In this document: positions 892-14,380 of the stretch, piece after piece
How the letters are laid out: every line of letters starts with the position of its first letter
How positions within the stretch are numbered: the first letter of the stretch is position 1
Virus record (IMG/VR): IMGVR_UViG_2718218453_000003
Coordinates: 1-39,971 of that record
Reading direction: 5' to 3' (one strand)
DNA length: 39,971 bases
From: a virus
Taxonomy: Duplodnaviria > Heunggongvirae > Uroviricota > Caudoviricetes
Program-made: the position numbers and the translations under genes
The notes under the pieces: generated by a model
What the model was told of the DNA's origin: nothing
What the model saw: the letters and a program-made list of their open reading frames with translations, nothing else
The model's database searches: none

Positions 892-981
892 GGAGAGATG
901 CCGGAGCGGCTGAACGGACCGGTCTCGAAAACCGGAGTGGGGGCAACTCCACCGGGGGTTCAAATCCCCCTCTCTCCGCCA
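892..981 (+). tRNA. serU: tRNA-Ser (anticodon CGA), 90 nt with long variable arm and encoded CCA; prophage integration target
   Basis: GGAGAGATGCCGGAGCGG...GGTTCAAATCCCCCTCTCTCCGCCA; anticodon loop CTCGAAA; integrase gene immediately adjacent. Confidence 0.9.
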
Positions 982-5406: not shown

Positions 5407-5459
5407 GGGCGGCAGAGCAGTCACGGAGTAAAACTGATACCGCCAAACGTCACCAGAAA
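5407..5459 (-). ncRNA. dicF: DicF small RNA (ftsZ-targeting sRNA of the dicB operon)
   Basis: Minus-strand sequence TTTCTGGTGACGTTTGGCGGTATCAGTTTTACTCCGTGACTGCTCTGCCGCCC followed by TTTTT matches recalled 53-nt DicF; lies between ydfC-like and dicB. Confidence 0.8.
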
Positions 5460-9802: not shown

Positions 9803-9982
9803 ATGAAAAACGCATTGCAGTTTTTGTTTGTTGCGTTTTGGTTGTTCGTATCATGTATGCCCATCATCTTCACAGCAAGGTATATGGAAAAAGTTGATGT
9901 TTTGATATTAATATTTGGATATATAAATGCCCTTTTTTTAGGGGTGTTCATGGCGGTCATGTGCATTGAATACTGGCGGTAA
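9803..9982 (+). CDS. Small hydrophobic membrane protein (59 aa, two predicted TM segments) in AT-rich segment
   Basis: AGGAGG RBS 5 nt upstream of ATG; MKNALQFLFVAFWLFVSCMPIIFTARYMEKVDVLILIFGYINALFLGVFMAVMCIEYWR. Confidence 0.55.
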   Translation: MKNALQFLFVAFWLFVSCMPIIFTARYMEKVDVLILIFGYINALFLGVFMAVMCIEYWR

Positions 9983-10037
9983 ATACAGCGAACGCCATTG
10001 GTTTAGTTGGATATTTACTGTGCCGGACAAAAACGGT

Positions 10038-10065
10038 TTGCGGGGAAATCTTAGTTAAGTAGAAT
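10038..10065 (+). promoter_or_regulatory. Candidate hok mRNA promoter (-35 TTGCGG, 16-nt spacer, -10 TAGAAT)
   Basis: Hexamers read in sequence; predicted 5' end coincides with element complementary to the mRNA 3' end. Confidence 0.4.
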
Positions 10066-10124
10066 GACTGCGGGTGCTTGAGGCTATCTGTCTCAGGCAT
10101 GAACACCAAAGGCAGATAGAGAAA

Positions 10125-10204
10125 AGCCCCAGTTAACATTACGCGTCCTGCAAGACGCTTAACATTAATCTGAGGCTCAATCTATGAACGGCAAATCTAG
10201 GTTA
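10125..10204 (-). ncRNA. Putative Sok-like antisense RNA region (candidate promoter -35 TTGCCT 10227..10222, -10 TAACCT 10204..10199) overlapping the mok SD and start
   Basis: Promoter-like hexamers with 17-nt spacer antisense to the mok initiation region; boundaries not determined. Confidence 0.3.
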
Positions 10205-10396
10205 GCCTCTTACGTGCCGAAAGGCAAGGAGAAGCAGGCTATGAAGCAGCAAAAGGCGATGTTAATCGCCCTGATCGTCATCTGTTTAACCGTCATAGTG
10301 ACGGCACTGGTAACGAGGAAAGACCTCTGCGAGGTACGAATCCGAACCGGCCAGACGGAGGTCGCTGTCTTCACAGCTTACGAACCTGAGGAGTAA
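10184..10396 (+). CDS. mok: Mok-like reading frame (70 aa), in-frame N-terminal extension of hok
   Basis: ATG with GAGG RBS; same-frame arrangement as recalled mokC/hokC. Confidence 0.55.
   Translation: MNGKSRLASYVPKGKEKQAMKQQKAMLIALIVICLTVIVTALVTRKDLCEVRIRTGQTEVAVFTAYEPEE
10241..10396 (+). CDS. hok: Hok/Gef-family type I toxin (51 aa), closest to recalled HokD/RelF
   Basis: MKQQKAMLIALIVICLTVIVTALVTRKDLCEVRIRTGQTEVAVFTAYEPEE; TM helix plus conserved RKDLCEV...TGQTEVAVF core. Confidence 0.85.
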   Translation: MKQQKAMLIALIVICLTVIVTALVTRKDLCEVRIRTGQTEVAVFTAYEPEE

Positions 10397-10466
10397 GAGA
10401 CCCGGCGAGGGAGAAATCCCTCGCCACCTCTGATGTGGCAGGCATCCTCAACGCACCCGCACTTAA

Positions 10467-10491
10467 CCCGCTTCGGCGGGTTTTGTTTTTT
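10467..10491 (+). terminator. Rho-independent terminator of the hok transcript (CCCGC-TTCG-GCGGG plus T-run)
   Basis: Hairpin plus TTTTGTTTTTT read in sequence. Confidence 0.7.
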
Positions 10492-10563
10492 CCTAGCATT
10501 CTGGTTTACAATTCGCACGCCAGCCTGAACAACTGGCACCTGCTGCGCCAGCAGAGACAACCG

Positions 10564-10842
10564 ATGGCGCACGATACCAAATTACACAATTCTGATGATT
10601 CTGCCGTCTTTGCCAGCAGGCACGGGCGGCGTTCCCGCACTTTCAAATCTGACTGGTTCCAGCATCCCCCATGCACTGAAGAACAGGCCGAGTGGCTAAT
10701 TCAGTGCTACCGCAGACACGGATACGAGATTAAGAAAGCCCTCAGCCTCGATTATCGTCACTGGATAATCTCCGTCAGGCTTCCTTACTCCGAACGCCCA
10801 CCGCGTCCGTCCCGCACATTCCAGCAACGCATCTGGAGGTAA
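10564..10842 (+). CDS. Hypothetical protein (92 aa); occupies the Qin rem slot between hok and ydfU-like gene
   Basis: First in-frame ATG downstream of the hok terminator; stop abuts DUF968 gene start. Confidence 0.5.
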   Translation: MAHDTKLHNSDDSAVFASRHGRRSRTFKSDWFQHPPCTEEQAEWLIQCYRRHGYEIKKALSLDYRHWIISVRLPYSERPPRPSRTFQQRIWR

Positions 10843-13241: not shown

Positions 13242-13317
13242 GGCCCTTTAGCTCAGTGGTGAGAGCGAGCGACTCATAATCGCCAGGTCGCTGGTTCAAA
13301 TCCAGCAAGGGCCACCA
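13242..13317 (+). tRNA. tRNA with CAT anticodon, ileX/ileZ-like (tRNA-Ile2, formally Met by anticodon), 76 nt with CCA
   Basis: Cloverleaf checked by hand: acceptor GGCCCTT/AAGGGCC, D-stem GCTC/GAGC, T-arm GCTGG-TTCAAAT-CCAGC, anticodon loop CTCATAA. Confidence 0.85.
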
Positions 13318-13417: not shown

Positions 13418-13491
13418 GCGTTGTTAGCTCAGCCGGACAGAGCAATTGCCTTCTAAGCAATCGGTCACTGGTTCGAATCCAGTACAGCGCG
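13418..13491 (+). tRNA. tRNA-Arg (anticodon TCT), 74 nt, no encoded CCA
   Basis: Cloverleaf checked by hand: acceptor GCGTTGT/ACAGCGC, anticodon stem ATTGC/GCAAT, loop CTTCTAA, T-arm ACTGG-TTCGAAT-CCAGT. Confidence 0.85.
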
Positions 13492-14124: not shown

Positions 14125-14348
14125 GCCGGGTATCAGTTAGCGGGAGAAATTTTTAAATACTTCACAATTCAGGCGGTTGACTGTTGTCTGGTTTGCGGGG
14201 AGTTTGTTAAAAGAAACTGGCATGGTGAATCCCCCTGTGCGGAGGGGCAATCAGCGAGTAGGTATATGGGATAATCGCGAATTCAGGTGCTGGTACTGAA
14301 TTCACCGGGAGGCACCCGGCACCATGCAATGGCACATAGCGCCACTCT

Positions 14349-14380
14349 CCAGCCCCTCTCCGGAGGGGCTGTTTATATTG
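14349..14380 (+). terminator. Rho-independent terminator (CAGCCCCTC-TCCG-GAGGGGCTG plus TTTATATTGATTTT)
   Basis: 9-bp GC stem, 4-nt loop, T-rich tail. Confidence 0.6.

Follow-up and report, generated by a model that had tools for sequence, protein, structure and literature searches.

Positions 10038-10491 (plus strand) of the virus record IMGVR_UViG_2718218453_000003, of which the whole stretch of 39,971 nucleotides was analysed and is called the window below, raise the question of whether a complete, RNA-regulated toxin gene is present there, and whether the complementarity between the two ends of its predicted mRNA is part of that regulation or an accident of sequence. We consider it highly probable that the segment holds a type I toxin-antitoxin module of the hok/mok/sok kind, intact and belonging to the hokD/hokW subgroup. 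A preliminary description of the DNA had called it a complete hok/mok locus, and every element that it named was found in place (Table 1). The element is already known, being an abundant, ordinary copy of the hok/sok toxin-antisense-RNA module in a lambdoid E. coli prophage, and its anatomy shows no departure from the hok/sok family. All hok/mok/sok sequence elements are found in this copy, the predicted alternative folds form, and conservation and covariation hold; its expression, processing and biological role we infer only, by analogy, and hok/sok function has been demonstrated in the 92%-identical hokW-sokW locus (PMC8621323).

Two sets of homologous loci served for comparison. A scan of one genome per species gave 53 loci, which, with phage VT2-Sakai added, came down to 41 distinct full-length loci from Escherichia spp., Shigella, Kluyvera, Pseudocitrobacter, Citrobacter, Photorhabdus, Erwinia and Kalamiella. 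These were aligned with MAFFT, blind to structure, and the resulting alignment (A1) was kept unrealigned to structure as a guard against bias. The second set comprises 75 IMG/VR loci with an identical Hok peptide, corresponding to 66 distinct intact sequences, and all named boxes are conserved among these 66 variants.

Table 1. Features of the hok/mok/sok locus, in coordinates of the window.
Feature	Position	Strand	Remarks
Candidate hok promoter	10038-10065	+	-35 TTGCGG 10038-10043, 16-nt spacer, -10 TAGAAT 10060-10065; by sequence inspection
hok mRNA, full length (predicted)	10072-10491	+	~420 nt; 5' end placed to ±2 nt; 3' end at terminator T-run
tac element	10072-10083	+	5'-terminal GGGUGCUUGAGG; three alternative partners: anti-tac, fbi, ucb
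Anti-tac partner	10090-10100	+	Pairs with 10074-10084 in the nascent transcript; fold of 10070-10122
Predicted Sok antisense RNA	10122-10192 (10192->10122)	-	71 nt by homology; sokW misc_RNA of AP000422.1 maps here
ucb (anti-SD) box	10124-10130	+	AAGCCCC; MFE pairs with mok SD in full-length and tac in 3'-truncated RNA; invariant in 41 loci
mok Shine-Dalgarno	10172-10175	+	GAGG; 8 nt upstream of ATG 10184; invariant in A1
mok ORF	10184-10396	+	70 codons; in frame with hok, common stop codon
sok promoter	10199-10227	-	-35 TTGCCT 10227-10222, 17-nt spacer, -10 TAACCT 10204-10199
dcb box	10204-10209	+	AGCCUC; pairs with mok SD region 10172-10177 in 3'-truncated fold and in local target hairpin; invariant in A1
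hok Shine-Dalgarno	10226-10231	+	AAGGAG; 9 nt upstream of ATG 10241; nearly invariant in A1
hok toxin gene	10241-10396	+	51 aa; Pfam PF01848, 82.9 bits; accession WP_000813254.1
3' UTR stem-loop	10404-10425	+	GGCGAGGGA-GAAA-UCCCUCGCC; in both full-length and truncated folds
fbi element	10446-10458	+	CCUCAACGCACCC; tac complement, bulged C10452; DNA complementarity on to 10461
Intrinsic hok terminator	10465-10491	+	Hairpin 10465-10482, 7-bp GC-rich stem, UUCG loop, T-run

The toxin gene had been assigned to the Hok/Gef family and credited with an in-frame, mok-like extension, and both assignments stand. The product matches Pfam PF01848 (HOK_GEF) with 82.9 bits against a cut-off of 22, over residues 6-47 of 51, and carries the same RefSeq accession in E. 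coli strain 190, where the DNA match is 100%, and in K-12 C600. The NCBIfam HokA and Hok-subfamily models score under their cut-offs (E = 6e-13), and we therefore base the name on Pfam, Rfam and the identical accession. The HokD peptide is toxic on overexpression (bioRxiv 10.1101/2025.08.07.668861). A UACG at the Tyr47 codon was considered as a tRNA-like loop and TadA editing site, and the local fold around it is weak (z = +0.5).

The mok reading frame is the hok frame lengthened by 19 codons, starting 57 nt before the hok ATG. In plasmid R1, mok overlaps hok out of frame. The in-frame arrangement is nevertheless unremarkable, as it is the same in the mokW and hokC/mokC loci. Most of the 41 homologous loci have an upstream ATG 56-58 nt before hok: in some a spacing of 58 nt gives an out-of-frame overlapping ORF of 55-69 codons, and in others a spacing of 56 nt gives a 19-codon ORF. 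With spacing and frame this variable, the conserved property is translation across the region and no particular Mok protein or fusion. Because mok and hok are in frame in the window, translation of mok gives an N-terminally extended Hok and not, as in R1, a separate peptide, and the coupling step between the two may thus differ in detail from that of R1. The common frame and stop codon, present here, in mokW and in the hokC loci, would also suit a different scheme, in which the effective toxin is the 70-aa Mok-Hok fusion from ATG 10184 and Sok is its direct repressor, with no translational coupling; RefSeq indeed calls the long product of the hokC locus 'toxin MokC'. We regard this scheme as unlikely, given that the hok SD AAGGAG hardly varies and neither does ATG 10241, that related loci start mok at 58 or 56 nt before hok and hence in another frame, some of them with an ORF of just 19 codons, and that the 51-aa HokW ORF is toxic by itself (PMC8621323). 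The 51-aa Hok is the toxin in the reading that we follow below.

The feature that most invites the question of chance is the long-range pairing. At the DNA level, as the preliminary description had noted, 10069-10083 (TGCGGGTGCTTGAGG) and 10446-10461 (CCTCAACGCACCCGCA) are complementary; a single bulged C (10452) interrupts the match, and the minimum free energy (MFE) fold of 10070-10491 closes with the tac/fbi helix at -176.5 kcal/mol, compared with -128.8 ± 6.6 for shuffled sequences (z = -7.2). Paired with the 3' partner, the 15-mer reaches a duplex energy of -27.3 kcal/mol and the 12-mer 10072-10083 one of -21.1, values that dinucleotide-shuffled 3' UTRs equalled in 0 and 2 out of 2000 cases, respectively. 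When both strands of the 40-kb window were searched for the best pairing site of the 12-mer, its own reverse complement aside, that site was fbi. The rarity among shuffles and the rank within the window together argue that the 5'-3' complementarity is not due to chance.

Conservation points the same way. Six core tac/fbi pairs are standard in 38-40 of the 41 loci in A1, and at the pair 10075/10455, 27 loci have U-A, 9 have C-G and 3 have U-G, a compensatory exchange between U-A and C-G. Overall, 81% of the tac/fbi cells in A1 are paired; in controls with the 3' partner slid by 1-3 columns this share drops to 40-62%, and the covariation score of 0.162 to 0.057-0.095. The distal half of the helix (columns 9-14) is under-scored, because the Photorhabdus loci are without the bulge and shifted by one column. 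The 5' element of the Kluyvera, Photorhabdus and Erwinia loci comes in GAGA, GGGC or GAAG variants. The outermost pairs, 10070/71 with 10459/60, hold in just 12-16 loci, and position 10069 varies freely among close relatives. One could thus argue from the shortness of the helix (12 transcribed base pairs plus a bulge) and from the lack of conservation of its outer three DNA-level pairs that the complementarity is fortuitous, or merely belongs to the structure of the terminator or UTR and regulates nothing. We give this next to no chance: besides the shuffling and window-wide results, the helix keeps the same aligned position across the loci, with the compensatory change and well above the slid controls, and there is genetic support for the homologous helix in R1 (PMC9841398). 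Judged on the aligned sequences, conservation effectively refutes a fortuitous origin, and the tac/fbi-type fold proposed in the preliminary description is both present in the MFE structure and conserved; the loss of complementarity among homologues that would have spoken against it, by that description's own standard, was not observed.

Where the transcript that carries this helix begins can be narrowed from three sides. The preliminary description had placed the mRNA 5' end at 10069; the complementarity does extend from there, and the RNA itself probably starts 2-3 nt downstream, at about G10072. This placement follows from the position of the -10 hexamer TAGAAT, the start of the Rfam model and the lack of conservation of the outermost tac/fbi pairs, and it would leave a transcribed tac/fbi helix of about 12 bp rather than 15. 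The Rfam family RF01794 ('sok antitoxin') covers 10072-10246 over its full model (1-157), with 110 bits against a gathering threshold of 59; as the match lies on the hok-sense strand, the family describes the hok leader, with Sok encoded in its complement. In the loci of Kluyvera, Photorhabdus and Erwinia, the conserved GCGGG is preceded at an equal distance by a TAnnnT hexamer, and among the IMG/VR loci the -10 of the candidate hok promoter is conserved and its -35 variable. A strict sigma-70 scan of both strands over 9900-10600 listed no promoter, a result that we do not take as promoter absence, because the sok hexamers are those of the experimentally mutated sokW promoter. At the other end, the terminator hairpin and T-run are the sole terminator-like site of the region. 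Upstream of it, the 3' UTR stem-loop keeps its hairpin despite substitutions in both arms, in A1 as well as relative to hokW, and, going by the R1 model, is likely to correspond to the protective 3' hairpin of the processed mRNA.

The tac element does not have a single partner, and the hok mRNA of R1 offers the model by which its alternatives may be read. In that model, the nascent RNA carries a metastable 5' hairpin; the full-length mRNA is closed, with tac paired to fbi and ucb over the mok SD; and the 3'-trimmed mRNA is open, with tac/ucb and mok-SD/dcb paired, and is both translatable and accessible to Sok, which is unstable, whereas the hok mRNA is stable and 3'-processed and the duplex of the two is cut by RNase III (PMC9841398). 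The folds predicted for nascent, full-length and 3'-truncated RNA of the window reproduce these three states. Within the first 53 nt of the nascent transcript a tac/anti-tac hairpin is predicted (10074-10084 with 10090-10100); the full-length MFE structure combines tac/fbi with pairing of 10125-10130 to the mok SD region 10172-10177; and in RNA truncated at 10440 the MFE structure pairs 10072-10079 with 10124-10130, and 10172-10177 with 10204-10209. The local target hairpin formed by the mok SD and dcb has a z of -3.3. The metastable tac hairpin is 97% paired in the 41 loci, compared with 31-49% in slid controls, and three of its pairs have changed on both sides. A change of U to C at position 10075 goes along with A->G at each of its two partners, 10455 and 10099, and such coupled covariation in the alignment would be expected of a multi-state RNA. 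No covariation signal comes from the ucb/SD, tac/ucb and SD/dcb helices, because their boxes never vary, and the alignment shows them as conserved without independent covariation proof; invariance of ucb, mok SD and dcb is what one expects of segments that have two partners.

The antisense gene was recognised by homology. The preliminary description had pointed to promoter-like hexamers on the minus strand, which are present and identical to those of sokW, and to a candidate antisense RNA near 10125-10192; the sokW feature maps to almost the same interval. The predicted Sok is identical to SokW at 64 of 71 nt and complementary to both the SD and the start codon of mok; its fold (-31.5 kcal/mol, z = -5.3) has a long hairpin between a single-stranded 5' tail and a U-rich tail. 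Its promoter is weak by consensus (7 of 12 hexamer positions match), yet the hexamers equal those of sokW base for base, and A2 and T6 of the -10 and the TTGCC of the -35 are invariant in the 41 loci. In the sokW system, a -10 mutant (TAACCT->GAGCCG, primer YO-421) unmasked HokW toxicity and sokW supplied in trans restored protection; sokW and hokW RNAs were seen on Northern blots, with effects of rnc and hfq; mitomycin C led, in a RecA-dependent manner, to loss of sokW and appearance of HokW in the inner membrane; and deletion of hokW-sokW delayed growth arrest and halved phage release (Takada et al. 2021, PMC8621323).

Carried over from the R1 model, the mode of action in the window would be as follows. 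A stable mRNA of ~420 nt would start near G10072, its 5' tac element being kept during synthesis in the local hairpin with 10090-10100. In the finished RNA, tac would pair with fbi and ucb would cover the mok ribosome-binding site, a closed form that would allow neither translation nor Sok binding. Slow trimming of the 3' end would take off fbi, upon which tac would move to ucb, the mok SD would enter the dcb hairpin and the Sok target would become exposed. The short-lived Sok RNA (10192->10122), made constitutively from the minus-strand promoter, would then pair with this target, blocking translation of mok and hence of hok, and would mark the duplex for RNase III. Should Sok synthesis stop, mok and hok would be translated and the 51-aa membrane peptide would depolarise the inner membrane, with prophage induction, loss of the element or a shut-off of host transcription as possible triggers.

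One of the closest known systems is hokW-mokW-sokW of the Stx2 phage Sp5/VT2-Sakai (AP000422.1), also carried by a lambdoid prophage, which is 91.8% identical in nucleotide sequence over 10032-10468 and has the same layout of an in-frame 70-codon mok, a 51-codon hok and a 71-nt antisense sok, with identical sok -35/-10, tac, ucb, dcb, SDs and fbi. The homology stops before the terminator, five C-terminal residues differ between the toxins (TAYEPEE in the window, VDYESEK in HokW), and hokW lies near the right end of its phage record, outside the early region, whereas the window copy is flanked by the replication and Q modules. Another relative is hokC/mokC/sokC (gef) of the E. coli chromosome, at ~75-82% nucleotide identity, with the same tac, ucb, dcb and fbi boxes and an in-frame mok of 69 codons at 57-nt spacing; it differs in its fixed chromosomal position outside any prophage, in its 50-aa peptide and in lacking an 18-nt insertion in the Sok hairpin region (A1 columns 78-95), for which reason the Sok stem of sokC is shorter. 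The type system, hok/mok/sok (parB) of plasmid R1, belongs to the same protein family (PF01848) and the same RNA family (RF01794) and has the same set of RNA elements, its described conformations being those reproduced by the predicted folds of the window. Its toxin is similar only at a distance, R1 Hok and HokW being 44% identical (PMC8621323). As the carrier here is a prophage, unlike in R1, plasmid stabilisation is not the obvious role for the window copy.

The comparison with K-12 is of a different kind. The toxin of hokD (relF), in the Qin cryptic prophage, is identical to that of the window, and its DNA is 99% identical over 10227-10490, fbi and terminator included; the downstream neighbours are shared (DUF968/ydfU and an antiterminator), and so is the prophage type, with dicB/DicF. 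In K-12 (C600), however, the homology begins only at 10227, within the hok SD and directly behind relB-relE, so that the hok promoter, tac, ucb, the mok start, Sok and the sok -10 are missing and relBE stands in their place. In the window the hok leader is intact and the relBEF arrangement is absent, tblastn finding no relB or relE similarity anywhere in it (E > 1), in agreement with what the preliminary description had said of both loci. Since K-12 has lost everything upstream of 10227, its hokD is the truncated derivative and the window locus the intact form.

For the surroundings of the locus we relied on RefSeq and its annotation of strain 190 (NZ_CP020520.1), whose 100%-identical copy belongs to a lambdoid prophage adjoining tRNA-Ser/mtfA. 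There, the module is flanked by a DUF977 gene on one side and by DUF968, RusA, antiterminator, tRNA and lysis genes on the other, downstream of cI/cro-like and replication genes and with dicB/DicF on the other arm. It thus sits in the nin-like early-right region of the prophage, with the replication genes on one side, DUF968-RusA-Q on the other and the orientation of both, and its earlier placement inside the early region is a fair one. Such loci are common: a 471-nt query was matched over at least 80% of its length, under the annotation hokD, in 3905 of 5426 complete E. coli genomes; the places found number 12,450, with a median of 2 and a maximum of 10 per genome; and 110 entries of phage records carry the locus, including Stx phages, where it is named hokW/mokW/sokW. 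A recent survey also found Hok enriched in prophages (bioRxiv 10.1101/2025.08.07.668861).

An intact sequence is no guarantee of activity, because chromosomal hokA, hokB and hokC loci have been reported, in work cited by that survey, as unable to mediate post-segregational killing (bioRxiv 10.1101/2025.08.07.668861). The window locus might accordingly be structurally complete and functionally silent, either transcribed and permanently repressed or too poorly expressed to kill, and so passive prophage cargo, a view to which the off-consensus sequences of both the hok and the sok promoter and the merely two-fold change in phage yield upon hokW-sokW deletion (PMC8621323) would lend themselves. 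We think it very unlikely: the regulatory boxes are all kept in the 66 distinct prophage variants and the 41 loci from multiple genera, compensatory changes included, which points to continuing selection on the RNA switch, and the 92%-identical hokW-sokW is active in a lysogen from its native promoters (PMC8621323). As its biological role, we prefer the one demonstrated for Sp5, in which membrane damage setting in earlier upon induction would help the cell to lyse and the phage to be released; the sequence would suit prophage addiction or abortive infection equally well, and the induction role of hokW may not transfer, because hokW sits elsewhere in its phage, outside the early region.

One stretch of the transcript is anything but conserved. 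Among the 75 IMG/VR loci, the most variable part is 10183-10197, which spans mok codons 2-5 and encodes the 5' tail of Sok. At least 10 alleles of this patch occur among loci with identical Hok that are otherwise 92-99% identical; the allele of the window is found in 7 loci, and three alleles are present together in one Shigella flexneri genome (L007, L009, L013). The antisense RNAs of the window and of hokW likewise differ at 6 of their first 10 nt, within these codons, and are nearly identical over the remainder, for which reason the window Sok and SokW may not cross-protect. It is conceivable, though we hold it to be doubtful, that 10183-10197 is a diversifying specificity patch by which co-resident prophages keep private antidotes, forming 'Sok specificity types'.

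A reader given the sequence alone had here picked out a textbook RNA-regulated toxin module, and the new biology is slight. The practical use lies in the annotation of hok/sok loci: at this locus RefSeq labels the 51-aa hokD CDS alone and omits mok and sok, and the antisense ORF that it has over the hok 3' UTR is probably spurious. The window also clearly shows that the relBE-hokD arrangement of K-12 derives by truncation from a complete prophage hok/sok locus. The sole thread perhaps worth more work is the 5' tail of Sok as a possible source of antidote types that do not cross-react within one cell. If this tail did set which hok mRNA a given Sok silences, such types would be analogous to plasmid incompatibility or phage immunity groups, and the Hok of one prophage would be free to fire whatever the state of the remaining copies, up to 10 of which may occur in an E. 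coli genome.

In the alignment of 41 distinct full-length hok loci (A1), which was built without reference to structure, the position of the mok start is conserved and its frame varies. The distance between the mok and hok ATGs is 57 nt in the window (10184/10241), 58 nt in, e.g., L010, L011 and L028-L031, and 56 nt in L050-L052, and mok is therefore an in-frame extension, an out-of-frame overlapping ORF or a 19-codon ORF, depending on the locus. As its frame is not conserved, neither is the Mok protein.

Within the stem running from the anti-SD box (ucb) to the mok SD, we observed an additional, GC-rich hairpin of 18 nt, GCGTCCTGCAAGACGC, which lengthens the Sok hairpin. It is present in hokD/hokW and Kluyvera-type loci, but absent from hokC-type loci and from those of Photorhabdus and Erwinia.

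The Tyr47 codon of hok, UAC, is followed by G, and none of the 41 aligned loci deviates from the resulting UACG. UACG is the motif for A-to-I editing by TadA, with Tyr-to-Cys recoding reported in hokB and, according to bioRxiv 10.1101/2025.08.07.668861, also in hokC, hokD and hokE. A search of the local fold for a tRNA-like loop around UACG gave none that was convincing (z = +0.5).

RefSeq lacks mok and sok at this locus and carries an ORF for a 'hypothetical protein' on the strand opposite the 3' UTR and terminator of hok, overlapping the terminator and fbi (the 3' element pairing with the mRNA 5' end); this ORF is probably spurious. Rfam matched further RNA genes in the window, including three tRNAs.

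Features of the window around and beyond the hok locus
Feature	Window position	Strand	Remarks
Hairpin in Sok stem	10137-10160		A1 columns 78-95
Patch 3' of mok ATG	10183-10197
UACG	10379-10382
WP_308286804.1	10378-10575	-	RefSeq; L002 11349-11546
DicF sRNA	5407-5458	-	Rfam, 76.7 bits
STnc100 sRNA	14191-14380	+	Rfam, 131 bits; 3' of phage tRNAs
tRNA-Ser	892-978		Rfam; adjoins prophage integrase
Phage Ile and Arg tRNAs	13242-13314, 13418-13491	+	Rfam; 3' of antiterminator gene

Photorhabdus and an Enterobacteriaceae genome carry hok loci in tandem, two or three to an array and ~560-630 nt apart (L036 from Photorhabdus temperata, with 5' motifs at 1354, 1983 and 2601, and L028, with loci at 759-1155 and 1321-1717). 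E. coli-type hokD DNA, 90-96% identical, was also found on tiny contigs or records labelled as Acinetobacter idrijaensis (L017, 275 bp), Xanthomonas pisi (L022, 431 bp), a Ca. Scatousia MAG (L055) and Actinobacillus phage vB_Apl-pPE4 (H32), which likely reflects contamination or mis-assignment and not a true distribution.

Immediately 3' of the mok ATG lies a hypervariable patch encoding the single-stranded 5' tail of the predicted Sok. Among 75 viral-contig loci with an identical Hok peptide (within L057-L136), it has at least 10 alleles between flanking boxes that are nearly invariant, and a single Shigella flexneri genome holds three (L007, L009 and L013 in A1). Judged from these sequences, the variation may represent a diversification of Sok specificity.
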